Below, one piece after another: positions 7,025 through 49,438 of a stretch of 64,000 bases of DNA. Position 1 is the stretch's first letter; every line of letters starts with the position of its first letter. The notes under the pieces were generated by a model that made no database searches, had not been told where the DNA came from, and worked only from the letters and a program-made list of their open reading frames with translations. The position numbers and the translations under genes are program-made. Source of the stretch: an uncultured Porphyromonadaceae bacterium (lineage in GTDB: Bacteria; Bacteroidota; Bacteroidia; Bacteroidales; Muribaculaceae); the NCBI GenBank assembly GCA_947567425.1, contig CANOLV010000016.1:246-64245 (forward strand), read 5' to 3'.

Positions 7025-9445
7025 TTATTTAAACAGGTTGGCGATTGTGGCTCCCATGAGTCCGATAGAAGCGGCCGCGGTGGTAATAGAGAGTATCTCC
7101 TGCAGTTTCACCGGATTCTTGTGCTTGGACGGTATGATGATATGGCATCCGGGTTCAATCGGGGTATTGCCTTTTGCCTTTGCCACGGTGCCGTTCATGT
7201 ATACGATGAATGCCTTTGACTTTTTGGCTGACGATCCATAACCTCCCGCCTGCTCGATATAGTACTTCAGCTTTTTGCCGCTCTGGAACACTACCGTGTT
7301 AGGGAACATCACGTCGCCCGATATTTTCACGGTATTGTTCATTTCGGGAATGAACAGCTCATCGCCTTCCTGCAGTACGAGGTCCATGCTCGATCCGGGG
7401 TTGGCGAGGGCTTTGTCAAGTTCGATGCCGACGGTGTAGCGCGTAGCGGTCATCAATTTCGACATGGATATCGAGTCGCCGCCTTCTCCTGCCTGATTGG
7501 CCGCTGCAAGCTTAATGGCTTCATTGCGTGCGGCTATTTCATCTTCGGTCATTCTGCGGCTGAGGTGCGCACCTCTGATGTATGCCTGCGGGGTCAGACC
7601 TCCTGCGCGTTTTACGAGGTCGCTTAACCGCTCGTTCTTTACGGTGAGCGTGTAGCCTCCGCCGAACTGTACTTCGCCGTCGATGGTGACGCGTTTTTGA
7701 GTCTGGTAGTTTGGCGAGCGTCTGACTTCTACGATGTCGTAAGGCTCAAGTAGAAATCCTTTTTTGCCGTTGACCACAAGGCCGTTTTCAAGATCGAATG
7801 AGAAGAGCTGGGCTGTCTGGTTGCCGCTCTTCAACGCTGCCGGATCATTGATGCGGCGCGACACGTCAAGGCGTGCGGTCGACGCTCCGCGGATCAGTCC
7901 GCCGGCCATTACTATCAGGTCTTCGACTGTGGTGTTGTCGGCGTAGGGGAACACTCCGGGACGGGCCACCATTCCGCTGATGGTAAGTGTGCCTCGGTCC
8001 TCCATCTCCTGTATGCTCGGAATGACGATCATGTCATTGCGGCGCAGCGCGATGTCGGGAGCCGTGCCGGCCATGATAGCTCCGAGGTCGAGTGGTATGA
8101 CTTCAAGCTGCAGGTTCTGGCCTTCGCGATAAAGAATCACACGTGTGGTGTAAGCGTCTTCCATAAGTCCTTCGGCGGCATTGACGAGATCTTTCACAGT
8201 GTTCAATTCGCTTGAAAGCGCGTACATGCCCGGGCGGAACACCGATCCTTTGAGCTCGACTCTATTGGCGTAACGGTCGAGGATAGTGCCCACGCTTACT
8301 ATGTCGCCGTTGTTGAGGCGGTAGGTGTCAAAGTCGGCGTTGGCAATGTTGAACAGTTCATTTTCGCGTCCGGTCTGTCTGGCCAGGCGAATCTGGTCGG
8401 TATAGGCGTCGCCGGTGAAGCCTCCTGCATAATCGATGAGGTCCTTGATGGTCTCTTCGGGGTTCATTTCGTAGTACATCGGACGCTTGACGTTGCCGTC
8501 GATGCTGACCAGCTGGCTGTAGGGGGGCACTATGATCACGTCGCCTTCCTGAAGCCTTATGTTCCCGTCCTGTTTGCCTTCAAACAGATAGTCGTAGATG
8601 TCGATATGCTTTATCACCTTGTTGTTGCGCACGAGTTGTATGTCGCGCATGGTTCCGAGGTCGTTTATGCCGTTGGCTTTGTATAGAGCGTGGAACACGG
8701 TGGAAAATGGCGACAGACGGTAGGTTCCGGGTACTGCCACTTCGCCCATGATGTTGATCTGTATGGTGCGCACCTGTCCTAAGGTGACGTTGATGTCCGA
8801 GTCGGGATCCTCGCCGCCGATGCCGGAATATTTTCCTGCAAAAGCGTCGCGTATGTGATTGTTGGCTTCTGCGATAGTCATTCCGTTCAGGTAAATCGGA
8901 CCGATCTGGGAGATCATTATGCGTCCTTCTGGCGATATGGTCTGGCGAAGGTGGTCTTCGTTTGCTCCCCAGATGTCGATCACCACTTCGTCGCCGGGGC
9001 CGAGACGATAGTTTTGCGGTGTGGCAAGATTCTCGTTTGGCTCGAATGTGAGTTGGGGATTGGTGAATATCGAGTGTCCGTAGATCTTTCTTGCGGACAC
9101 GCGGTCATTGTTGCCTTTGTCTACTTCACGGCCTACGTCGGTAAGTTCGGCCGCCGATACCTCTGTCGATGCGTCGCGCTGTCTGTCACGGTTGTTTTGT
9201 GCTACAGTTTTGTCTGCGACGTTTGTGTCACTTCCTTGCGACTCTTCAAATCTGGCTTTCAGACGTTCCACCTGGGCAGGGGTCACTCCTTTGGCGATAA
9301 GCTCATTGCCTATCTGGCGATGTGATTTTCCCGCGGCGGTCTGTTGTTTTACATACTCTAACACTTGGTCGTCTGTCATTGCATTGATTGCGGTGACTGA
9401 TGACATCGCCATAGCTATGGCAAGTGCTAAAACTCTAATTTTCAT
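7025..9445 (-). CDS. wza: Polysaccharide export outer-membrane protein (Wza/BexD-like, multiple SLBB domains)
   Basis: Poly_export motif (YRLGPGDEVVIDIWG) followed by repeated SLBB-like units (GDV/GDI..V). Start moved to the ATG at 9445 (MKIRVLALAIAMAMSSVTAINA signal peptide) from the longest ORF at 9526. Confidence 0.85.
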   Translation of the reverse strand: MKIRVLALAIAMAMSSVTAINAMTDDQVLEYVKQQTAAGKSHRQIGNELIAKGVTPAQVERLKARFEESQGSDTNVADKTVAQNNRDRQRDASTEVSAAELTDVGREVDKGNNDRVSARKIYGHSIFTNPQLTFEPNENLATPQNYRLGPGDEVVIDIWGANEDHLRQTISPEGRIMISQIGPIYLNGMTIAEANNHIRDAFAGKYSGIGGEDPDSDINVTLGQVRTIQINIMGEVAVPGTYRLSPFSTVFHALYKANGINDLGTMRDIQLVRNNKVIKHIDIYDYLFEGKQDGNIRLQEGDVIIVPPYSQLVSIDGNVKRPMYYEMNPEETIKDLIDYAGGFTGDAYTDQIRLARQTGRENELFNIANADFDTYRLNNGDIVSVGTILDRYANRVELKGSVFRPGMYALSSELNTVKDLVNAAEGLMEDAYTTRVILYREGQNLQLEVIPLDLGAIMAGTAPDIALRRNDMIVIPSIQEMEDRGTLTISGMVARPGVFPYADNTTVEDLIVMAGGLIRGASTARLDVSRRINDPAALKSGNQTAQLFSFDLENGLVVNGKKGFLLEPYDIVEVRRSPNYQTQKRVTIDGEVQFGGGYTLTVKNERLSDLVKRAGGLTPQAYIRGAHLSRRMTEDEIAARNEAIKLAAANQAGEGGDSISMSKLMTATRYTVGIELDKALANPGSSMDLVLQEGDELFIPEMNNTVKISGDVMFPNTVVFQSGKKLKYYIEQAGGYGSSAKKSKAFIVYMNGTVAKAKGNTPIEPGCHIIIPSKHKNPVKLQEILSITTAAASIGLMGATIANLFK

Positions 9446-9602
9446 TATACTGTCGTTTGGGATTATGATTTTATATGCATTGTGAATAGGCAACGTGCCT
9501 TTGCGGGCATTAATTGTCAGCTGCAAAATTAGTAATTAATTTACTTACAAACAAATATGGATGCTTATTAATGAGCCTGCAAAAATAAGTTGTAAAGTAA
9601 TG

Positions 9603-9656
9603 GCATAAAATAAAAGGGACCGCCATTGAGCGAAATTGCTCCCCGAGGCGGTCCCT
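9603..9656 (-). terminator. Rho-independent terminator after pfp
   Basis: 10-bp stem AGGGACCGCC/GGCGGTCCCT (9615-9624/9647-9656), followed on the minus strand by a T-rich run. Confidence 0.6.
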
Positions 9657-9735: not shown

Positions 9736-11391
9736 TTATGAATGATGCTTTTGGTACTCGTACTGGAGTGTCAGTGATGGCTGGTCGCACACTTCTGCCG
9801 GGCCGAAGTACTGGATCGGGCCTGGGTATATGAATGAAGTGTTGAGCGCCCATGAGTCGCGCATTGCGGCGAACTTCTGGAACGGTGCTCCATCGAGAGT
9901 GACGAGAGCCTTTTGTATCACGGGCTTCATCATGCCGTGGCGGCGCTCCATGTTCATCATCATCGTGATAGGTATACCGCCGCTTACCCACTGTACTGAA
10001 GGCTTGGTCAAGCCGCGTACGCTTGACATGTAGCCGGTGACTCCGGCGCGGATGAGGCATGCGGCGTTGAATCCGAGCGCATAGCAGTAGTCGGCGTCGA
10101 AGTTAGATGGGTCGGCGCAGCGTCCTTCATATCCGAAGAAGTGGAACATGCTGGCAAACTTGCCTACATAGCGTCCTTCCGACTTAAGCTGGTCGAGACG
10201 GCGTGCTACCATGTGGCCGAGAAGCTTTTCGGTCTCGATGAGCGACACCTGGACATTGCCGTGGGGGTCGCGGTCGAGGCAGAGCTGATGTGCCACGCCT
10301 TCGGGGAGGCTTGCGAATATGGCTGAATTGTCGGCGCTGAGACGGTCGATGATCCAGCTGATCTGGTTGGACTGTTCTACCTTGGCAAATTCGTCGGCAT
10401 TCTGGGCCATGAGGTCGTTAAGCTCGGCGATGAGTGCCTTCATGGCGGGGATGAACTCGATGAGGCCTTCCGGGATGAGTACGGTTCCGAAGTTCATGCC
10501 TTTGGCTGCGCGTGCGGCCACTACGTCGGCTATGTTGTTTACTATGTCGTTGAGCGTTTGCTTCTTGGCCTCTACCTCTTCTGAGATTATGCAGACGTTG
10601 GGCTGGCACTGCAGGGCGCATTCGAGTGCGATGTGGCTTGCCGAACGACCCATGAGTTTGATGAAGTGCCAGTATTTTTTAGAAGAGTTGCAGTCGCGCT
10701 GGATGTTTCCGATGACTTCGCTGTACACTTTTGTCGCGGTGTCGAAGCCGAACGATGTTTCGATGACTTCGTTCTTGAGGTCGCCGTCGATGGTCTTGGG
10801 GCATCCGATCACCTGTACTCCCGCGTTGATGGCCTTGTAATATTCGGCGAGGATAGCGGCGTTGGTGTTGGAGTCGTCGCCTCCGATTATCACGAGAGCC
10901 TTGATGTTGAGTTCTTTCAGGATTTCGAGGCCTTTGTCGAATTGGGCCTGGGTCTCCAGCTTGGTGCGTCCGGAACCGATTATGTCAAATCCTCCGGTAT
11001 TGCGGTATTCGTCGATTATGTCGGCGGTAAGTTCTTTGTACTGGTGGTCAACGAATCCGCCGGGGCCCATAAGGAAGCCGTACAGGCGGCTGTCGCGATG
11101 GATTTTCTTGATTCCGTCGAAAAGACCGCTGATCACATTGTGGCCGCCGGGGGCCTGTCCGCCCGAAAGGATTACTCCTACGTTTATCGGTTGTCCTTTT
11201 ACCGGTGAGCCGTCTTTTTCGAAATGAATTTCCGGCAGTCCGTAAGTGTTGGGGAACAATGCTTTGATTTCCTCCTGGTCAGCAACAGACTGAGTAGCTT
11301 TTCCCTCGACAGCCTTAACTGCCCCAGTAAGCACGATAGGCAACTTGGGCTGGTAAGCCGCGCGGGCTTTTTGAAGTGCACTCTTCTTCAT
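9736..11391 (-). CDS. pfp: Diphosphate--fructose-6-phosphate 1-phosphotransferase (PPi-PFK)
   Basis: 551 aa. PFK motifs [10 protein letters not shown] and MGRSASH, with the long PPi-dependent form architecture. Confidence 0.9.
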
Positions 11392-11660
11392 CTTTTAGTA
11401 ATTATGGTTTAATATTGATTGTAGTAATTTCAGAGTGCAAATTTCGTAAAAAAATATCAATATATCAACTTATCCTATAGATAATAAAGTCATCAAATAT
11501 TAAATAGTTTATAAAAACAGGCTGTCGGGGAAGTGAAATGTGTGTATAGCTGTCTCAATTATTGTTAAAATCATGGAATATCGGATGCTTAATGGCCTTA
11601 TCGGTCGGTGTCTGTTTTTAAAATGGCTTAAAAAAGGGTCTGACTTTCGTCTAAAATCCG

Positions 11661-11668
11661 TATATTTG
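11661..11668 (+). promoter_or_regulatory. Bacteroidota -7 promoter box (TATATTTG)
   Basis: Matches the TAnnTTTG consensus, 32 nt upstream of the ATG at 11700. Confidence 0.5.
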
Positions 11669-11699
11669 CACCTCATAATTAAAAAATGAGAAGCCGTTA

Positions 11700-12734
11700 A
11701 TGTTACAGCAGATAATTTCTGAATCAAATATAAAGCAGGTGCGCAAGTTGCTTGAAGAAAGCGAACGGATAGTGATCACTTGCCACAAGTCGCCCGACGG
11801 CGATGCGATAGGTTCGTCGCTCGGACTCGCACACACGCTTTCCAATATAGGGAAGGAGGCGAAAGTGGTGACTCCTGACCGCCCGCCGCGCAATCTTCGG
11901 TGTCTGCCGGGTATAAAGGATATTGTGCCGTTTACCCAGTATCCCGACTTCGCCCATCAGCTTCTTGAGGACGCCGACCTGATATTCTGTCTTGACTTCA
12001 ACGCGCTTTACCGTGTCGACCGTATGCGCGACGAGCTGGCCGCCACCCATTGTCCCAAGATAATGGTTGACCACCATGAGGGTCCGGAGCCGTTTGCCGA
12101 CGTCATAATCTCGCATCCCGAGCAGTCGTCGACATCGGTGCTCGTGTTCAGGCTTCTTTGCAGGCTTGAACTGTTCAACAGGATCGACCGCAAGGCCGCC
12201 ACGTGCATCTACACTGGAATGATGACCGACACCGGCAATTTCACTTATAATTCCAACGACCCCGACCTCTATATAATCATCGCCGAGCTTCTCCACAAAG
12301 GAGTCAACAAGGATGAGATATATAAGAAGGTGATGAACACCAAGACGGCCGATGTGCTCAAACTGCATGCCTATGCCGTAGCCGAGAAGATGGAGCTGTT
12401 TCCCGAACTGCATACCGCGCTTATCGTGCTCCGTCAGGACGACCTGAAGCGGTATGACTATCATCCGGGCGACGATGAGGGGCTTGTCAATATGCCTCTG
12501 GGTATTGAGAACATGGTCTACTCCGTGTATCTGCGCGAGGACACGAACCAGATAAAGGTGTCGACCAGAAGCACCGGCAATTTCCGTGCCGACCTTATTT
12601 GCCAGAATTTTTATAACGGAGGCGGTCATATAAACGCGGCCGGCGGCGAATTGCCCCCGGATCTGGATGCGGCTTTGGCAGTGTTCCGCTCGACATTCCC
12701 CACGATAGAAGAGTATTTGAAAGATAAACATTAG
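11700..12734 (+). CDS. nrnA: DHH family phosphoesterase (NrnA-like oligoribonuclease/pAp phosphatase)
   Basis: 344 aa. DHH motifs HKSPDGDAIGS, DHHEG and GGGH (DHHA1). Confidence 0.85.
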   Translation: MLQQIISESNIKQVRKLLEESERIVITCHKSPDGDAIGSSLGLAHTLSNIGKEAKVVTPDRPPRNLRCLPGIKDIVPFTQYPDFAHQLLEDADLIFCLDFNALYRVDRMRDELAATHCPKIMVDHHEGPEPFADVIISHPEQSSTSVLVFRLLCRLELFNRIDRKAATCIYTGMMTDTGNFTYNSNDPDLYIIIAELLHKGVNKDEIYKKVMNTKTADVLKLHAYAVAEKMELFPELHTALIVLRQDDLKRYDYHPGDDEGLVNMPLGIENMVYSVYLREDTNQIKVSTRSTGNFRADLICQNFYNGGGHINAAGGELPPDLDAALAVFRSTFPTIEEYLKDKH

Positions 12735-42650: not shown

Positions 42651-44759
42651 ATGTTCAAATATTACAAACCAATCGTTATGTCGGCGACATTACTTGCCGT
42701 GGCTGCGTCCTGTACTACCGGGGAGCAGGCCAATGATAAGATTATCGACCGGCCTGAGGTGACTATCACCGACGGTAAGTTTTCAGTGGAGGCTCTTGAG
42801 GCTCTCGGACGAGTGACTGACCCTGTGATATCGCCCGATAAGACTAAAGTGCTGTTCGGGGTGTCGTATGAAAGCATCGAGGAGAATGCTTCTAACCGTG
42901 ACCTGTATGTGATGAATGTCGACGGATCGGATCTGACAAGGCTTACCAAGACTCCGAAGTCGGAGAACAATGCCGTGTGGATCAACGGTGGACAGCAGAT
43001 AGCGTTCATGTATCCCGACGGCGACAAGAATCAGGTATGGGTGATGAATGCTGACGGATCCGGACGCAAGTGCGTAAGCTCGGTGGAGCAGGGTGTAGGC
43101 GGATTTCTCATATCGCCCGACGAAAAGCATATAGTGATGATAGCCAACGTGAAGTACAGCCGCACGGCTCAGGATGTATATCCCGATCTGCCGAAGGCTT
43201 CAGGACGCATCATCGACGACCTTATGTACAAGCATTGGGACGAATGGGTGACCGAAGTGCCTCATCCTTTCCTCGGCGACTTTGACGGCAATGCGGTGAC
43301 TAATGTCGCCGACATTATGGCCGACGAGCCATACGAAGCTCCGATGAAGCCGTTCGGCGGTGTGGAGTCGTTCGCCTGGTCGCCTGACGGCAAGCAGTTG
43401 GTCTATGTGTCGCGTAAGAAGACCGGCATGGAGTACGCCCTTTCTACCAATTCCGACCTTTACCTCTATGACCTGGCCGACAAGTCGACCCGCAATCTGA
43501 CCGAAGGCATGATGGGCTACGACACGAACCCCGTGTTCTCCCCCGACGGAAAGTATGTGGCTTGGCTGAGCATGGAGCATGACGGATATGAAAGCGACAA
43601 AAACCGCATCTTTGTACTTGACATGGCTTCCGGCGAAAAGAACGACCTTACCGTCAACTGGGATTATACGGTAGATGCCATAGCATGGCAGCCGTCGAGC
43701 CGAGGCTTGTTCTTCCAGGCTTACCGCGACGGTGTGAAGCCGGTGTTCGCCATCGGTCTTGACGGCACTGTAAGTGTGGTGGCACAGGGTGAGTATGACT
43801 ATGAAAGCCTGTGCCCGGTTTCCGACACAGAACTCATCACCATGCATCATTCTATGGTGGCTCCTAATGAGATCTACTCGGTCAAGAACGGAGAGGTGAC
43901 CCAGTTGAGCTTCATCAACAAGGACCTCCTCGACAAGGTGACGATGCCTAAGGTGGAAAGGGTTATGGTGCCTACCACTGACGGCAAGGAGATGCTCACA
44001 TGGGTGATCCTCCCTCCCAACTTCGACGAGACCAAGCAATATCCCGCCATACTTTACTGCCAGGGCGGCCCTCAGCAGGCTGTCAGCCAATTCTGGAGCT
44101 ATCGCTGGAACTTCGCCCTCATGGCTTCCGAAGGCTACGTCATTATAGCTCCTAACCGCAGAGGTCTGCCGGGATTCGGCACCGAGTGGAATGCCCAGAT
44201 CTCAGGCGACTACGGCGGCCAGAACATGAAGGACTATCTCAGCGCAGTCGACTACATGAAGGTTAAGCCCTATATCGACGAGAAGCATATCGGTGCCGTT
44301 GGCGCAAGCTACGGCGGATTCTCGGTATATTGGCTTGCCGGCAACCACGACAACCGCTTTGCATGTCTGATTGCCCATGCCGGAATCTTCAACACTGAAG
44401 CGCAGTATCTTGAGACCGAGGAGATGTGGTTTGCCAACTGGGATCTCGGCGGTCCGTTCTGGGACAAGTCAAACGCCGTGGCTCAACGTTCGTTTGCCAA
44501 CTCGCCCCATCGTTTTGTCGACAAGTGGAATGCTCCGATCCTGATCACCCACGGAGAATTCGACTTCCGCATCCTTGCTTCTCAGGGCATGTCGGCTTTC
44601 AATGCCGCACGTCTGCGCGGGGTGCCTGCCGAAATGCTGATCTTCCCCGACGAAAACCATTGGATTCTCAAACCGCAGAATGCCGTGCTTTGGCAGCGCG
44701 TGTTCTTCCGTTGGCTCGACCGCTGGCTCAAGGAAGCCCCTGCCCAGCCCGCCGAATAA
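42651..44759 (+). CDS. S9 family (prolyl oligopeptidase/acylaminoacyl-peptidase type) serine peptidase
   Basis: 702 aa. Lipobox-like AVAASC, N-terminal beta-propeller (SPDG repeats), nucleophile elbow GASYGGF, and a C-terminal Asp/His region. Confidence 0.9.
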   Translation: MFKYYKPIVMSATLLAVAASCTTGEQANDKIIDRPEVTITDGKFSVEALEALGRVTDPVISPDKTKVLFGVSYESIEENASNRDLYVMNVDGSDLTRLTKTPKSENNAVWINGGQQIAFMYPDGDKNQVWVMNADGSGRKCVSSVEQGVGGFLISPDEKHIVMIANVKYSRTAQDVYPDLPKASGRIIDDLMYKHWDEWVTEVPHPFLGDFDGNAVTNVADIMADEPYEAPMKPFGGVESFAWSPDGKQLVYVSRKKTGMEYALSTNSDLYLYDLADKSTRNLTEGMMGYDTNPVFSPDGKYVAWLSMEHDGYESDKNRIFVLDMASGEKNDLTVNWDYTVDAIAWQPSSRGLFFQAYRDGVKPVFAIGLDGTVSVVAQGEYDYESLCPVSDTELITMHHSMVAPNEIYSVKNGEVTQLSFINKDLLDKVTMPKVERVMVPTTDGKEMLTWVILPPNFDETKQYPAILYCQGGPQQAVSQFWSYRWNFALMASEGYVIIAPNRRGLPGFGTEWNAQISGDYGGQNMKDYLSAVDYMKVKPYIDEKHIGAVGASYGGFSVYWLAGNHDNRFACLIAHAGIFNTEAQYLETEEMWFANWDLGGPFWDKSNAVAQRSFANSPHRFVDKWNAPILITHGEFDFRILASQGMSAFNAARLRGVPAEMLIFPDENHWILKPQNAVLWQRVFFRWLDRWLKEAPAQPAE

Positions 44760-44787
44760 TATAACTCGCAAAAAGCCGATAACGCAG

Positions 44788-44824
44788 AAGCCGGAGATTG
44801 CACCCAAGTCGCAATCCCCGGCTT
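44788..44824 (+). terminator. Hairpin after the S9 peptidase gene
   Basis: AAGCCGGaGATTGC..GCAATCcCCGGCTT. No strong U-tract. Confidence 0.45.
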
Positions 44825-44891
44825 CATGCTAAATTATTTAAGATGTGTTTTATAACATGTTGTTTTGTTTGTGATTGTAAATTTAAAGCCA

Positions 44892-44899
44892 TATATTTG
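44892..44899 (+). promoter_or_regulatory. -7 promoter box (TATATTTG) in front of the four-gene array
   Basis: TAnnTTTG match at the start of the AT-rich segment. Confidence 0.45.
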
Positions 44900-44961
44900 C
44901 GAAAATACGAGATGCGATGCCTCGTCGCGCATCAGAGGTAAACAAACCTACCGCACGCGAT

Positions 44962-44997
44962 ATGAAAACCAATCATCTGCTCCTCGCCGTGGCCATC
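44962..44997 (+). repeat. Left copy of the 36-bp direct repeat bracketing the four-gene array
   Basis: ATGAAAACCAATCATCTGCTCCTCGCCGTGGCCATC versus 46997-47032, 32/36 identical by hand alignment. Confidence 0.7.
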
Positions 44998-45018
44998 TTT
45001 GCGAATAGAATAGGTTGT

Positions 45019-45471
45019 ATGGAAAATAAGTACAGATTTATTGAAGATGATAATGATTTTGGCTACAATTGTCAAAACATTGAAGAAAAAATATTCCTTG
45101 AAATATTGTCGCAATTGCCAGATGATGTATATTGGTATTGTGGCGACTATGTCTATGACCTTATTAAAGATGAGAGATTGCTAGGACTTGCTCGATGGGA
45201 AATACCATTAGATGATAGTTATGGCTGGTATTGCAAGCGATATATACTAAATAGCGAATGCAAGAAATATCTAAAAGAAAATTTACATGGAAATTTATTG
45301 TCGTATTATTTTTGTCATCACATGATAAAAAGTAAAAGTAAAGTGTATCTTATAGTGTTTGATGCAGTATTGTTTGATGTATATTCAGGCATAAACATAC
45401 CTCAAAATATATTGGATAGTGGGGAAAATAATGGTGTATATGTAAGTTTCAGCGACCCAGTTGAGATTTGA
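45019..45471 (+). CDS. Hypothetical protein, array paralog A (about 150 aa)
   Basis: Frame open from 44917. The ATG at 45019 gives a length matching the three paralogs. Shares QLPDD.., ECKKYL, FCHHMI, YLIVFD, IPQ, FSDPV blocks with the next three ORFs. Alternative starts are 44917 and 44962. Confidence 0.65.
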   Translation: MENKYRFIEDDNDFGYNCQNIEEKIFLEILSQLPDDVYWYCGDYVYDLIKDERLLGLARWEIPLDDSYGWYCKRYILNSECKKYLKENLHGNLLSYYFCHHMIKSKSKVYLIVFDAVLFDVYSGINIPQNILDSGENNGVYVSFSDPVEI

Positions 45472-45515
45472 TAGCAAGATTACAAACACTTAAAATTAGA
45501 TTAAATCAGTAAATT

Positions 45516-45965
45516 ATGGCATATAATGAAAATTTCAATGATACAATCGACGATGATCGAGAAACAGAAATATGTAATAATGTTGTAGCATTCCTATTTG
45601 AACAAATTCCTGATAATGCCGGCTTATACGTAAGCGATTATATTGATATTTTACAAATAGAGTGTCCATATTTTGGAGTGTTCCAATATGAATCAAGCAA
45701 CGATGATAAAAATTATAAGAGAAAATTTATTTTATCAAAAGAATGCAAAAAATTCTTTCTTGAAGAGGATAACTCTACATTTTTATTTGGAGGTGTTTAT
45801 TTCTGCGATTACATGATTAGAGATAACAATAAATTGTACGTCAGCGTATACGATGGATGTCACTTTAACATTGACAAGTCCATCAAGATTCCTCAACACG
45901 TGCTTGACGAGTGCGAGAGGGAGCTGGAAATGGACTTTACATTTAGTGACAACGTGACACCATGA
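45516..45965 (+). CDS. Hypothetical protein, array paralog B (149 aa)
   Basis: Paralog blocks QIPDN, ECKKFF, FCDYMI, YVSVYDGCHF, IPQHVLDECE, FSDNV. C-terminal third nearly identical to the fourth ORF. Confidence 0.7.
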   Translation: MAYNENFNDTIDDDRETEICNNVVAFLFEQIPDNAGLYVSDYIDILQIECPYFGVFQYESSNDDKNYKRKFILSKECKKFFLEEDNSTFLFGGVYFCDYMIRDNNKLYVSVYDGCHFNIDKSIKIPQHVLDECERELEMDFTFSDNVTP

Positions 45966-45983
45966 ACACGACAATGGATAGAT
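45837..45983 (+). repeat. 147-bp block duplicated at 46822-46968
   Basis: Roughly 84-85% identity by hand count. Covers the last ~43 codons of paralog B, its stop and 18 nt downstream. Confidence 0.7.
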
Positions 45984-46427
45984 ATGCGGAACTATTATTT
46001 AGAATTTGAACCTGGTGAATTAGAAGACGACACAGATTATAGTGCCGATGTTTTGATTGAAATTTTGAATCAGATACCGTCCAATACTTATTTATATATG
46101 GGCTGTTATGTTGACCAACTTTTCGCAGATCAACGTATGCTTGGACTTCTGGAATATGAAATACCATTGGACAAAAGCTATAGGATATATGACCGACGTT
46201 TCAAATTGACCTCTGAATGCAAACAGTATCTTAAAAATAATTTACATATAAATTATGAGAGTTTCTTTTGCCATTACATGATTAAGGATGATGAGAAAAT
46301 ATATTTATTGGTTTTTGATTCATATAGTTTCGATTTAGACGCAAGCCTAAGTTTGCCGGACAAACTTATCCAAGATTGTGAGAAAGAAGAAATTTACATT
46401 CGATTCAGCAATCCGGTAATACTGTAG
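45984..46427 (+). CDS. Hypothetical protein, array paralog A' (147 aa)
   Basis: Paralog blocks QIPSN, ECKQYL, FCHYMI, YLLVFD, LPDKLIQDCE, FSNPV. Closest to the first ORF. Confidence 0.7.
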   Translation: MRNYYLEFEPGELEDDTDYSADVLIEILNQIPSNTYLYMGCYVDQLFADQRMLGLLEYEIPLDKSYRIYDRRFKLTSECKQYLKNNLHINYESFFCHYMIKDDEKIYLLVFDSYSFDLDASLSLPDKLIQDCEKEEIYIRFSNPVIL

Positions 46428-46515
46428 TATTGTAGTGTTTTTTGGGGCATCAAAAGTTTTGGACAATACATTATGTCGATTATTTAAAATGTCAACTAAA
46501 TAAATAAGACTATAT

Positions 46516-46950
46516 ATGGAAGAGTTTGATTTAATTTGTCAAGACAAATTGACATTTGCATTATTTGGTTACATAATCAAACAAGTACCCAATGATGCGT
46601 TTATTGATTGTTCTGATTATTTGGCACTATTAAAGAGAAAGCCTGTCGAAAAGCATCTTCCTATTGAGATTCTAAAATGGGAAATTCCTTGTCAGAATTA
46701 TTATGAACCGGATTCTGTCAGAATTGAGTTAAATGAAGAATGCAAAAAGTATTTGCATTCTAACATTTTGAGAGTGTCTGGATTTTTGTGTCACTTTACA
46801 ATTAGTGATGCCCAAAAAACTTATGTTAGCGTATACGATGGATGTCATTTTGACATTGACAAATCTATAAAGATTCCTCAGCGCGTGCTTGACGAGTGCG
46901 AGAGTATGTTGGAAATGGACTTTCGTTTCAGCAACACCGTGACACCATGA
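46516..46950 (+). CDS. Hypothetical protein, array paralog B' (144 aa)
   Basis: Paralog blocks QVPND, ECKKYL, LCHFTI, YVSVYDGCHF, IPQRVLDECE, FSNTV. Confidence 0.7.
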   Translation: MEEFDLICQDKLTFALFGYIIKQVPNDAFIDCSDYLALLKRKPVEKHLPIEILKWEIPCQNYYEPDSVRIELNEECKKYLHSNILRVSGFLCHFTISDAQKTYVSVYDGCHFDIDKSIKIPQRVLDECESMLEMDFRFSNTVTP

Positions 46951-46968
46951 ACGCGACAATATATAGAT
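46822..46968 (+). repeat. Second copy of the 147-bp block
   Basis: See 45837-45983. Confidence 0.7.
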
Positions 46969-46996
46969 GGAAATGCAGAATTTTTATTCATAATTT

Positions 46997-47032
46997 ATGA
47001 AATCCAATCATCGGCTCCTCGTCGTGGCCACC
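46997..47032 (+). repeat. Right copy of the 36-bp direct repeat bracketing the array
   Basis: ATGAAATCCAATCATCGGCTCCTCGTCGTGGCCACC. Confidence 0.7.
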
Positions 47033-47055
47033 GCATCGCAAAAGTATGATAATAG

Positions 47056-47111
47056 ACAAAGGAGACAGCCCCACAAGCTTTTTTACATGCTTGCGGGGCT
47101 GTCTCCTTTGT
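47056..47111. terminator. Bidirectional terminator hairpin between the array and the convergent LRR gene
   Basis: 17-bp stem ACAAAGGAGACAGCCCC/GGGGCTGTCTCCTTTGT with a 22-nt loop. Confidence 0.7.
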
Positions 47112-47131
47112 TGCTTGCCGATAAGTATTCT

Positions 47132-49438
47132 TTAATTGTTGCTATATATGATCTTGCGGATGCCTTCAGATGTCTTCTTGATCAGGATCTGTCCTTCCTC
47201 GGGGTTCTCTACGCGGATACCCTGAAGATTGTAGTAAGTGGCTTTGCCGTCCTGTTCGTTCATTATATCCTCGATGCCCGACGGTTCGTCGCCGGTCCAT
47301 AAGATGTTGAGGAAGTCCTTCCATTCGTATGCCTCCTTATATGCATAGTAGCCTTCGGAAGGCACGTACAGTGTGGTTCCGGAATAGTTGTCGGATGTAA
47401 AGGCATTCTCTCCTTCGGTGATGGTCGGAGGCGTGACGGCCTTGCAATTGATCGACTTCAGATTCCAACAGCTCAGGAAGGCTACATTGCCCAGCGATTT
47501 AAGGGTCGATGGGAGTTCGAGTTCGGTAAGATTCCAGCACCATCCGAATGTGCGGAAGCCTATGGTGGTGACTCCTTCGGGGATAGTCAATTTTCCGGTG
47601 AATCCGGAGCAGCTGACGAATGCCTGGTCGCCGATTGTGGTCACGTTCTTTCCTATGGTAAGTGCGCCTTTGAAACCCTCGCACATGGCAAATGCCATGG
47701 AGCCGATCGACTCTACATTGTCGGGAATAGTGAGCGGTCCGGTCAGCTTGTCGCAATTGGCGAATGCCGAAGCGCCTATTGTCTGCAGTGAAGCGGGCAG
47801 TGTCAGCCATCCCCATAGTTTGCCGCAAAGCTGGAAGGCGGATTCGTCGATGACCGTTACCGAGTTGCCGAGTTCGAGACCGGTGATTTGAGAACATTGT
47901 GTGAACGCCTTTTTGCCTATGGTGGTGACATTCTCCGGTATGGTGAGTGTTCCTGACAGTGATGAGCAATTATAGAATGCGCCGTCGCCGACAACTGTCA
48001 CCGACGATGGTATGGCGAGTGTCCCGGACAGCGATGTGCATCCGAAGAACGTGTTTGGGGCTATTTTTGTCAAGTTGTCGGGAAGAGTCAGTTGGCCGTC
48101 GAGCGACGAGCAGCTCATGAATGCACCCTCGCCGATTGTGCTGACGGAGTTGGGTATTGTCAAGGAGCCTTTGAGGCTGGATGCGCCCATGAAGGCCTGC
48201 TTGCCTATTGAAGTCAGGCCGGAGCCGAATTTTATATCTCCGTCCAGTTTTTTACAACCGTTGAATGCTCCTTCGCCGATAGTGGTCAATCCTGCCGGGA
48301 AGTCAAGGCCTCCGGTCAGACCGCTGCATAGGATGAAGGCGTTTTTGCCTATGGATTGGAGGGCATTGCCGAATTTCAGAGTCCCGTTAAGTCCGATACA
48401 TGCGCTGAAGGCGCTTGTTCCTATAGTAGAGACTTTGTCGCCGAACACTAATCCTCCGGTGATGTTTTGGCATCCGTTGAATGCATTGTCTCCGATGACC
48501 TCAAGATTATCTCCGAGCGTTAGCGTGCCGGTGATATTCTTCATCCCGGAAAATGCGTTGTCCTTTATCGCCGAGACGATATACTCAACTCCGTCGACGG
48601 TCAAGGTGGAAGGGATGACCAGATTCTCGGCATCTGCTTCGGGATTGACGAATCCGATGACTGTGGCCCGTTTTGCCGTTTCATCAAAGGTATATGCCAG
48701 GATGCTTTCTGTTTCTTCCGGAGGTGTTAATGGATTGTCGATCTGTGTGACGTTGTCCAGTCCCACGAGTTTTAAGAATATGTCCTTTGTCGGAGTTACC
48801 TGGAAGTCGGTCGTCACTTTGTAGTTGTTGGCCTCTTCGGTGAATGTCAGTGTGTAGGCCTTGTCGATGCATGGGAATGCGTAGATGAAGTAGCCCTTTC
48901 CGTCGACGATGTCGGTGCATCCCTTATAATGCTTGCCGGGCATCTCTCCGAAAGGTTCGGTTCCGTCGGAGGCCACGGCATAGAGGTCGATGTCATATCC
49001 GGTGTTCATCTTGAATGGGAGTTCGTCGATGTTGACATACAGCATTTTGTATACGTTGACCCCACCTTCTGTGTATGCTGTCAGGCCGTCGGCATTTGCT
49101 ATTATATAGTAGTCTTTGTCCTCCATTGTCAGGGGATAATCAGCTTTTCCCCGGCTCCAATTGTTTGAGTATTGAACGTTGACATCCATGCCGACCGCGT
49201 CGTCCGAGATCGTGAATTTGTCAAAGGTCAGGTCGTACTTATCGACTGTTCCCTCGGAATAGCCGTTATAGCCGAAGTCTTTATAATTCTGGTCGGCGTC
49301 ATATCCCCATACGTACACCAGAGGCTTGTCGAAGCCCGTTTGGTTGCTGATGTAGAGCGTAGGCGAGGCGTTTGCCGGAAGACTGAAAAGTCCGAACGTT
49401 CCGAGCATACTTAAAAATAGGGTACTGGCTTTCTTCAT
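47132..49438 (-). CDS. BspA-like leucine-rich-repeat surface protein with T9SS C-terminal sorting domain
   Basis: 768 aa. Signal peptide MKKASTLFLSMLGTFGLFSLPANA, about 15 LRR_5-type units (IG..AF..C..L.G.L.IP..V..) and a CTD-like tail (ATYYNLQGIRVENPEEGQILIKK). Confidence 0.8.
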   Translation of the reverse strand: MKKASTLFLSMLGTFGLFSLPANASPTLYISNQTGFDKPLVYVWGYDADQNYKDFGYNGYSEGTVDKYDLTFDKFTISDDAVGMDVNVQYSNNWSRGKADYPLTMEDKDYYIIANADGLTAYTEGGVNVYKMLYVNIDELPFKMNTGYDIDLYAVASDGTEPFGEMPGKHYKGCTDIVDGKGYFIYAFPCIDKAYTLTFTEEANNYKVTTDFQVTPTKDIFLKLVGLDNVTQIDNPLTPPEETESILAYTFDETAKRATVIGFVNPEADAENLVIPSTLTVDGVEYIVSAIKDNAFSGMKNITGTLTLGDNLEVIGDNAFNGCQNITGGLVFGDKVSTIGTSAFSACIGLNGTLKFGNALQSIGKNAFILCSGLTGGLDFPAGLTTIGEGAFNGCKKLDGDIKFGSGLTSIGKQAFMGASSLKGSLTIPNSVSTIGEGAFMSCSSLDGQLTLPDNLTKIAPNTFFGCTSLSGTLAIPSSVTVVGDGAFYNCSSLSGTLTIPENVTTIGKKAFTQCSQITGLELGNSVTVIDESAFQLCGKLWGWLTLPASLQTIGASAFANCDKLTGPLTIPDNVESIGSMAFAMCEGFKGALTIGKNVTTIGDQAFVSCSGFTGKLTIPEGVTTIGFRTFGWCWNLTELELPSTLKSLGNVAFLSCWNLKSINCKAVTPPTITEGENAFTSDNYSGTTLYVPSEGYYAYKEAYEWKDFLNILWTGDEPSGIEDIMNEQDGKATYYNLQGIRVENPEEGQILIKKTSEGIRKIIYSNN
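47518..48571 (-). repeat. Internal LRR_5/BspA-type coding repeats
   Basis: Iterated ~23-aa units across about 350 residues. Confidence 0.65.

Follow-up and report, generated by a model that had tools for sequence, protein, structure and literature searches.

A stretch of 64,000 nucleotides (nt) from contig CANOLV010000016.1 of an uncultured Porphyromonadaceae bacterium, placed by GTDB in the Muribaculaceae (hereafter the window), carries four same-strand open reading frames (ORFs 1 to 4) between an S9 peptidase gene and a convergent leucine-rich repeat (LRR) gene. We propose, with a probability of roughly 70%, that these four genes constitute a horizontally acquired, homogeneous orphan polyimmunity locus. 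The family to which they belong most likely comprises the cognate immunity proteins of one C-terminal RHS toxin domain of ∼80-100 aa, a role that would be ancestral and still widespread. This assignment is drawn from a strict gene order in four lineages, the survival of family genes after toxin decay, complementary charge, the cytoplasmic appearance of the proteins and their immunity-island neighbours. The window copies are regarded as orphan since they do not lie 3′ of a toxin and no toxin was found in the window, and horizontal arrival is indicated by a GC content at third codon positions (GC3) of ∼0.3 in the array versus ∼0.6 in its flanks. The initial annotation, made from the letters of the window alone, had ventured an orphan polyimmunity array, a reading now supported by distant family members directly 3′ of RHS toxins and by toxin stubs. 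The immunity family and the RHS toxin tip are new; the organisation of the locus is known and the principle is not surprising.

Distant family members follow a shared RHS toxin tip

In four independent lineages (L016/L017, L022/L107-L112, L023 and L106) a family member was found directly 3′ of, and co-oriented with, a shared C-terminal domain, with gaps of −4 to 121 bp. This is the gene position of a cognate immunity protein, and the window copies do not occupy it. At L016/L017, family member P0028 begins 79 bp after a 685-aa protein with TEN_YD-shell, RHS repeats and an RHS core; in L016 the core ends at NRYSYCLNNPLCYVDEDGE and is followed by a Gly-zipper-like linker and then by the ∼80-100-aa C-terminal domain. 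At L022 and L107-L112, P0012/P0043 begin 121 bp after a YD-shell/RHS protein, which is intact in L109 (894-7076; 2060 aa with SpvB, FG-GAP, YD-shell and RHS core, and a small Por_Secre_tail gene upstream) and is cut to 992 aa in the other L022-type contigs, where an integrase gene lies just upstream. At L023, the start of P0013 shares 4 bp with the end of an ORF running off the contig, and at L106 a 135-aa member begins 36 bp after P0041, a 98-aa ORF. The L016 carrier scored 63.7 bits against TIGR03696 (Rhs_assc_core; cut-off 32.5) and another carrier 61.6 bits. The core boundary motif in the carriers is NRYSYxxNNPLxYVDxDGE, and TIGR01643 YD repeats, Pfam TEN_YD-shell and SpvB are also present (L016, L022 and L109). 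Judged by these profile matches, the upstream partner genes at L016, L022 and L109 are true RHS polymorphic toxins.

The four toxin tips are mutually homologous (tblastn E 1e-10 to 1e-26, 35-59% identity), and their alignment contains 18 invariant columns, including Q-E, K, R-x-E, R-H-M-N, E, P and H-x-F-L-N. They are basic (isoelectric point (pI) 9.0-9.6), whereas the family members are acidic (pI 4.2-5.0). Across all fetched loci, a hidden Markov model (HMM) of the toxin domain matched only where a family member is the next gene, and the domain was never seen without a family member after it. In two further lineages the toxin is present only as a decayed stub. Just ahead of the orphan members P0038 and P0040 (L018-L021), and behind stop codons, is the stub WINTPLPGHTTKNIHIFLEKK, which ends in a stop of its own and corresponds to the last ∼25 toxin residues (HMM E = 4.6e-6). 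Displaced toxin-immunity modules usually leave such a stub, and these are putatively modules of that kind. The toxin tip had no match in Pfam, NCBIfam or PDB, nor the domain in IMG/VR, and a single-sequence model of P0041 reached a predicted local distance difference test score (pLDDT) of 67, with an uninformative Foldseek search. The putative toxin domain is, by these searches, undescribed and unnamed; its carriers, SpvB/FG-GAP/YD-shell RHS polymorphic toxins, are from Bacteroidota. Toxins of the SpvB/FG-GAP/RHS type have been listed under the TcdB/TcaC class, present in Bacteroidetes (Zhang et al. 2012, PMC3482391).

An association of homologs with polymorphic-toxin or type VI secretion system (T6SS) effector genes, which had been proposed as a check, was found in part: RHS toxins are adjacent in four lineages, and no T6SS genes were seen in the fetched flanks. 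Small genes encoding a type IX secretion system (T9SS) tail lie beside RHS genes in both L109 and L013, a Muribaculum locus, and the two small proteins are homologous (1.5e-12).

Since function is read here from gene order alone, and a fold with no known relative gives no structural pointer to inhibition, the family might instead be a toxin accessory (a chaperone, stabiliser or secretion adaptor), with the window copies being inert relics or reused in the cytoplasm. We consider this improbable. The family gene is always directly 3′ of the toxin tip, encodes an acidic protein next to a basic toxin and outlives decay of the toxin to a stub, all of which is the behaviour of an immunity gene, and four intact paralogs unchanged in all sampled strains argue against inert relics. 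Effector chaperones and adaptors (Eag/DUF1795, DUF4123, DUF2169) are usually encoded upstream of, or with, delivery genes and are not expected to last as multi-copy arrays without a toxin, a pattern that does not fit the family.

Composition and paralogy of the window array

All four ORFs were recovered from the ORF listing at the positions originally reported (Table 1), separated by spacers of 44, 18 and 88 nt. Their protein alignment has 22 invariant columns, among which are the motifs first used to call them homologous, and the family HMM gave exactly four matches in the window, ORFs 1-4, at E 1e-40 to 1e-46. The proposed A-B-A′-B′ alternation of two subtypes held for overall identity (ORF1/3 47%, ORF2/4 49%, remaining pairs 29-36%), but the likeness of ORF2 and ORF4 proved to be a mosaic, mainly C-terminal, with the last 60 aa 67% identical and the preceding part 33%. 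Since a 168-nt direct repeat shared by these two genes runs past both stop codons, and since their identity is mosaic, gene conversion or partial duplication between non-adjacent paralogs is the event that the repeat putatively indicates. The description of the proteins as small, acidic and lacking a signal peptide was also borne out. ORFs 1-4 have a pI of 4.2-4.9, a net charge of −8 to −17 and no hydrophobic segment, and members across the family lack signal peptides and transmembrane segments, so that cytoplasmic location is predicted.

In 400-nt windows, GC content drops from 0.55-0.57 to 0.28-0.38 across 44800-47000 and is back up by ∼47200. Gene GC is 0.31-0.35 in the four ORFs versus ∼0.51-0.55 in the two adjoining genes, and GC3 is 0.27-0.34 versus 0.54-0.68 in flanking genes. 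The stretch that had been noticed by eye as AT-rich is therefore foreign by both GC and GC3.

The start of ORF1 at 45019 is favoured by homologs and by the alignment but is not certain. Some gene callers use another in-frame ATG, at 44917, which would give 184 aa; the extra 34 aa (44917-45018) are encoded by GC-rich sequence spanning the left copy of a 35-nt repeat and have no counterpart in homologs, and the predicted promoter would put the transcription start only ∼10 nt ahead of this ATG.

Absence of a toxin from the window

No toxin domain, RHS core or toxin stub was found in the 64-kb window or in five Muribaculum islets by toxin HMM and RHS-core tblastn searches. Between 44701 and 47200, in six frames and at maximum sensitivity, the best toxin HMM match had an E of 3. 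No toxin, recombinase or secretion gene had been seen adjacent to the array, and Pfam matches to the neighbouring genes extend that statement to 10 kb. The array would nonetheless not be orphan if the same genome held one or more RHS toxins with this domain outside the window, in which case the four genes could be reserve self-immunity or the displaced remnant of the organism's own toxin locus. In favour of this explanation, which we rate as unlikely though not far-fetched, the view is limited to 64 kb, L013 shows that RHS toxin loci of the SpvB type, with a family member close by, occur in Muribaculum, and the protection given by polyimmunity loci may extend to toxins that the organism itself has newly acquired (Zhang et al. 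2012, PMC3482391). The search of the window and islets speaks against it, as does the different C-terminus of the L013 toxin; a scan of GTDB representatives, in which the toxin itself was not searched, likewise gave family members in three Muribaculum genomes only.

Identity, fold and rarity of the family

The initial annotation did not recognise the family, and none of the resources consulted (Pfam, NCBIfam, PADLOC, PHROGs, PDB, Foldseek) placed it, in a housekeeping family or otherwise. Searches of ORFs 1-4 against Pfam, NCBIfam, PADLOC and PHROGs returned sub-threshold noise only, for example ICAM_N and YcgN; 30 family members gave nothing consistent against Pfam, with no SMI1_KNR4 and no Imm family; and family profiles found nothing credible among PDB sequences (best E ∼0.3, chance-level). 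An AlphaFold2 model of ORF3, built from nine family sequences, had a pLDDT of 84.8 and a predicted template modelling score (pTM) of 0.80 and shows an alpha/beta fold with the helix (H) and strand (E) order H-E-H-H-E-H-E-E-E-H-E. Foldseek searches with this model found no neighbour in PDB or BFVD (best E 0.36-0.84, template modelling (TM) score < 0.35).

A word-indexed search of 5.8 billion clusters yielded seven proteins, four of them the window's own. An exhaustive HMMER scan of 1.84 billion representatives gave 33 matches at E ≤ 0.001; one of these, P0029 (1338 aa, 12 matched stretches), is a low-complexity repeat artefact and was discarded, leaving a family of ∼32 credible 50%-identity clusters. 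By the measure of these searches the family is unnamed and rare. Its members are 40-184 aa long, most 130-150 aa and a few fragments, and share a QxP near the first helix, ECxxYL, (F/L)CHY and VxD. A candidate Cys/His metal site (C79/C96/H97/C132) was rejected because it is invariant in the Muribaculum clade only and substituted in distant members.

No family member was found in IMG/VR, among INPHARED phages or among PLSDB plasmids. These results bear on the possibility, also raised at the outset as anti-defence, that the genes have no connection with interbacterial toxins and are instead anti-phage defence, anti-defence or some other cargo of a mobile element. In favour of this are the high AT content of the islet, the 35-nt direct repeat on its two sides, and the position of the L022-type RHS locus beside a terminase gene, a DUF5675 gene and an integrase gene. 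Yet neither PADLOC nor PHROGs gave a match; the toxin domain and the 35-nt repeat, like the family, are without a match in IMG/VR; neither the window array nor the Muribaculum islets have phage genes nearby; and the strict pairing with an RHS toxin tip would be left unexplained. The anti-defence alternative is thus without support, and this whole group of explanations is very improbable.

Distribution among same-species contigs and Muribaculum relatives

Eight same-species metagenome contigs carry the array at the same site, all of them 100% identical over 2301 nt. Presence in sister strains, which had been put forward as informative, was thus confirmed, and an empty site was not found. Among 80 metagenome loci with orthologs of the S9 peptidase (54-75% identity), none has a family member (0/80), from which it follows that the array did not ancestrally adjoin that gene; these loci yielded no array-free version from a sister strain, and their synteny is not conserved. 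The scan of GTDB representatives found relatives in three Muribaculum metagenome-assembled genomes (MAGs) only. The window's own species was not represented among the loci recovered, even with a search pattern that fits the window ORFs; the representative genome of that species may lack the array or the region.

In these MAGs, and in contigs related to them, the Muribaculum members occupy other AT-rich islets. The insertion sites differ: the S9 peptidase and LRR genes flank the window array, and carB precedes the islets of L009 (one member), L011 and L014 (two members each, with decayed fragments); L012 has a tandem pair. Among Muribaculum species there are one to four members at two different chromosomal sites, and the single member of MAG GCA_964543345.1 is 87% identical to ORF4. 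The islets also hold broken family genes, namely 93-nt 3′ ends, an FSNPVRL-stop stub ahead of a DUF695 gene, and FCHYMIR fragments. Since such pieces flank other genes in the carB islets, recombination between paralogs evidently reshuffles these putative arrays and islets.

Signals bordering the array

The composite Bacteroidetes-type motif TTTG-N20-TAnnTTTG was found nine times in the window against 0.64 expected by chance, and the copy listed in Table 1, which contains the −7 box already marked at 44892, is the sole one upstream of the array. A hairpin directly 3′ of the S9 peptidase stop is likely the terminator of that gene and the left limit of the array unit. The strong terminator noted at the other end was upheld by its folding energy (Table 1), and is likely bidirectional, serving the convergent array and LRR gene. 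A sub-threshold Rfam match to mir-142 on both strands of 47041-47125 (33 bits against a gathering score of 57) reflects this terminator hairpin only and was rejected.

A feature absent from the initial annotation is a 35-nt direct repeat whose two copies bracket the AT-rich islet just outside it, in sequence of host-like composition. It gave no match in shuffled sequence, is present in all same-species contigs, and has no match in any other locus examined or in IMG/VR. It could be a duplicated target, an insertion scar or an att-like core left by insertion of a putative 2035-bp islet. No recombinase was found within 10 kb of the array by Pfam on neighbouring genes, and flanking direct repeats were not found around the other Muribaculum islets, which have just internal family-gene fragments.

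Table 1. Features of the array and its surroundings. Coordinates are window positions unless a locus is named.
Feature	Coordinates	Strand	Description
S9 peptidase gene	42651-44759		Pfam Peptidase_S9 at 1.5e-53; upstream neighbour of the array
Hairpin	44787-44825	+	Directly 3′ of S9 peptidase stop; 15-nt arms, 93% complementary
Bacteroidetes-type promoter TTTG-N20-TAnnTTTG (predicted)	44868-44899	+	−7 box TAnnTTTG at 44892-44899, TTTG 20 nt upstream
35-nt direct repeat, left copy	44961-44995	+	32/35 identical to right copy
ORF1	45019-45471	+	150 aa, family HMM E 2e-45, pI 4.57; predicted orphan immunity protein
ORF2	45516-45965	+	149 aa, family HMM E 1e-41, pI 4.23; predicted orphan immunity protein
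ORF3	45984-46427	+	147 aa; predicted orphan immunity protein; chosen for structure modelling
ORF4	46516-46950	+	144 aa; predicted orphan immunity protein
168-nt direct repeat	45816-45983 and 46801-46968	+	82% identity; 3′ ends of ORF2 and ORF4 plus 18 nt past the stop codons
35-nt direct repeat, right copy	46996-47030	+	32/35 identical to left copy
Strong hairpin	47056-47111	.	23-nt arms, 96% complementary; free energy (dG) −44.3 kcal/mol, z = −8.95
BspA-type LRR_5 gene	47132-49438		Convergent to the array; Pfam LRR_5 at 4.4e-120
Decayed family-gene fragments in carB islets	L011 802-833, 3491-3583; L014 9862-9886, 10486-10578		
Lipoprotein-like ORFs	L009 10457-10933; L011 2440-2865; L014 9432-9857; L016 12798-13310, 13338-13763		141-170 aa, signal peptide ending in Cys

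Proposed mechanism and its weak points

In the proposed mechanism, the array, gained by horizontal transfer and belonging to a family remodelled by paralog recombination, would form a single operon whose message runs from the promoter at 44868-44899 as far as the hairpin at 47056-47111. The four paralogs, which have diverged from one another, would each bind, and so neutralise, a separate variant of the toxin domain delivered into the cytoplasm by a competitor, so that their divergence would broaden protection against variants of one RHS-delivered toxin. As far as the window shows, the array would protect a cell that does not itself make the toxin. Physical binding, protection, the matching of one paralog to each toxin variant and the delivery route are what we infer. 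The toxin possibly acts in the cytoplasm on nucleic acid, a target suggested only by the small basic toxin with its conserved K/R/E/H residues and by the acidic inhibitor.

A more far-reaching version is rather doubtful. It would have the small basic toxin domain with its RHMN motif and the immunity protein of ∼140 aa both adopt new folds, the arrays spread in Muribaculaceae as recombinase-less cassettes through site-specific recombination in trans that leaves 35-nt repeats, much like integron cassettes without a resident integrase, and the toxin be delivered by a route other than the T6SS; this last element is suggested by the conserved small T9SS-tail gene beside the SpvB/RHS gene.

Several points weigh against an orphan polyimmunity locus. 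Its sequence is identical in 8/8 same-species contigs, and polyimmunity loci are usually described as strain-variable. The window paralogs are tied to the toxin only through gene order at other loci and through apparent charge complementarity. Specificity may have drifted, given that the window ORFs are 22-35% identical to the four cognate immunity proteins. Toxin and immunity divergence showed no significant correlation (Spearman rho 0.6, p = 0.21) over six pairwise comparisons among four pairs. The predicted toxin activity is assigned to a domain with no match in Pfam or PDB and a model pLDDT of 67. A cognate toxin could lie elsewhere in the genome, 64 kb of which was inspected, and the array would then not be orphan. 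The context sample, finally, is small, at four toxin lineages and ∼32 family clusters.

Comparison with known immunity loci

Homogeneous polyimmunity loci include tandem arrays of SUKH, Imm6, Imm11, Imm33, Imm36 and Imm41 genes (Zhang, Iyer & Aravind 2011; Zhang et al. 2012, PMC3482391). The window array resembles these in having tandem, co-oriented, divergent paralogs of one family with short spacers, at least four genes (the 'extended' type), no toxin cassette and a Bacteroidetes host. All four genes are of a single paralog type, whose nature as an immunity protein is taken from gene order elsewhere, and no toxin interrupts them. The spacers, one promoter motif and one terminator predict a single message. 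Strain-to-strain gene variation was not found in the eight identical contigs, though Muribaculum species differ. The array is unlike the published loci in that it belongs to none of the named Imm or SUKH families, has no Pfam match and lacks an adjacent recombinase.

Both SUKH-type arrays and the acquired interbacterial defence (AID) clusters of Bacteroidales had been suggested as models. Likeness to a homogeneous polyimmunity locus is retained; membership of SUKH or of the recombinase-associated AID (rAID) class is not. With respect to SUKH/SMI1_KNR4, the organisation is alike and the fold unlike, there being no sequence match and a best E of 0.84 (TM < 0.35) for the ORF3 model against PDB. 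rAID-1 clusters are defined by a 5′ recombinase of the tyrosine class, XerD-like and sharing more than 44% identity with BF9343_RS08045, by at least two co-directional downstream genes with a GC of ≤41%, and by repetitive integron-like intergenic sequences (Ross et al., 10.1101/471110). The array has four low-GC genes (0.31-0.35). Upstream of them, however, is the S9 peptidase gene, with no Phage_integrase or recombinase Pfam match within 10 kb on either side, and no motif is common to the three spacers, there being only a 14-nt two-copy match and the outer 35-nt repeat. By analogy, the array would work as do the orphan-immunity AID/rAID clusters of gut Bacteroidales; rAID genes are 32-91% identical to their cognates (Ross et al., 10.1101/471110; Azhieh et al., PMC12247911), compared with 22-35% for the array ORFs, and an acidic immunity surface has been reported for rAID I2 proteins (Azhieh et al., PMC12247911; Ross et al., 10.1101/471110). 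It differs in having four genes of one family rather than up to 31 mixed genes, and in that the cognate toxins are SpvB/FG-GAP/RHS proteins beside a small T9SS-tail gene, not recognised T6SS effectors.

In its distant members, the family shares with the modules of RHS and contact-dependent growth inhibition (CDI) systems an immunity gene directly 3′ of a variable C-terminal toxin past the RHS core boundary. Such 'orphan' toxin-immunity modules, 3′ of rhs and cdiA genes in Proteobacteria, are said to have been described by Poole et al. in 2011 and Koskiniemi et al. in 2014. Truncated toxin fragments are kept at L018-L021, as in displaced RHS/CDI modules, and the family-gene fragments at L011 and L014 resemble the reshuffling of RHS/CDI loci by recombination between repeated segments. 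The window array, unlike these modules, lies far from any rhs gene and has immunity paralogs only, without a toxin fragment.

Significance

A toxin-immunity pair missing from Pfam, NCBIfam and PDB now has a testable assignment, with four cognate pairs and a four-gene orphan array. The Muribaculaceae, a dominant group in the mouse gut, have been poorly characterised, and we found little in the literature on their role in contact-dependent antagonism (eLife 2026, PMC13633076). An orphan array directed against SpvB-type RHS toxins suggests that they are under attack from such toxins and mount a defence comparable to the AID/rAID clusters of human-gut Bacteroides, without a recombinase. The family could join the immunity-gene catalogues used for metagenome profiling, and its fold, apparently without a solved relative, is a reasonable structural target for asking how diverged orphan immunity proteins keep toxin binding.

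Neighbouring genes and further observations

L004 (2743-12038) represents one strain of the window's species in which the LRR gene is divided into ORFs of 561 and 180 aa, the right flank has 38 mismatches and the genes past FtsX are arranged differently (Vsr, glycosyltransferase); its array is still 100% identical. The L022/L107-L112 loci represent a human-gut Bacteroidota lineage (for example L107 5760-6578 and 11178-15330); beside the L022-type RHS gene are an intein-containing (Hom_end/LAGLIDADG) terminase large subunit gene and the DUF5675 gene.

In L013 the single family member follows a 227-aa CxxC ORF, which in turn follows a different RHS-type C-terminus. The region 7705-9626 has a small T9SS-tail/RHS-repeat ORF and then a signal-peptide ORF running into a 100-N scaffold gap. 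Past the gap, a Gly-zipper linker leads to a C-terminus that is AT-rich, bears EGHHTLP...THIEIH motifs and has no Pfam match; the 227-aa protein, which has two CxxC pairs, comes next. These genes probably form another RHS toxin-immunity pair, undescribed and unrelated to the first.

At L023 the family member is followed by a 154-aa repeat-containing ORF (713-1177), a homolog of which precedes another family member in L024 (2-352) and L025, and by a Macro-domain protein (1.8e-14; 1198-1653); these neighbours look like further members of putative heterogeneous immunity arrays. L011 encodes (842-1804) a 320-aa protein with a C-terminal DUF695 domain (3.4e-5) and an N-terminal domain homologous to the ORF at 11151-12014 in the post-RHS array of L016 (BLASTP 5e-26). 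A further candidate immunity family may be represented by this protein; no link between DUF695 and immunity was found in a search of the literature. At L016 a run of small unannotated ORFs follows the RHS gene, two of them homologous to Muribaculum islet ORFs. Unrelated genomes share small lipoprotein-like ORFs (Table 1) next to family members; those of L011 and L016 match at BLASTP 2e-7, and these ORFs may encode periplasmic immunity proteins.

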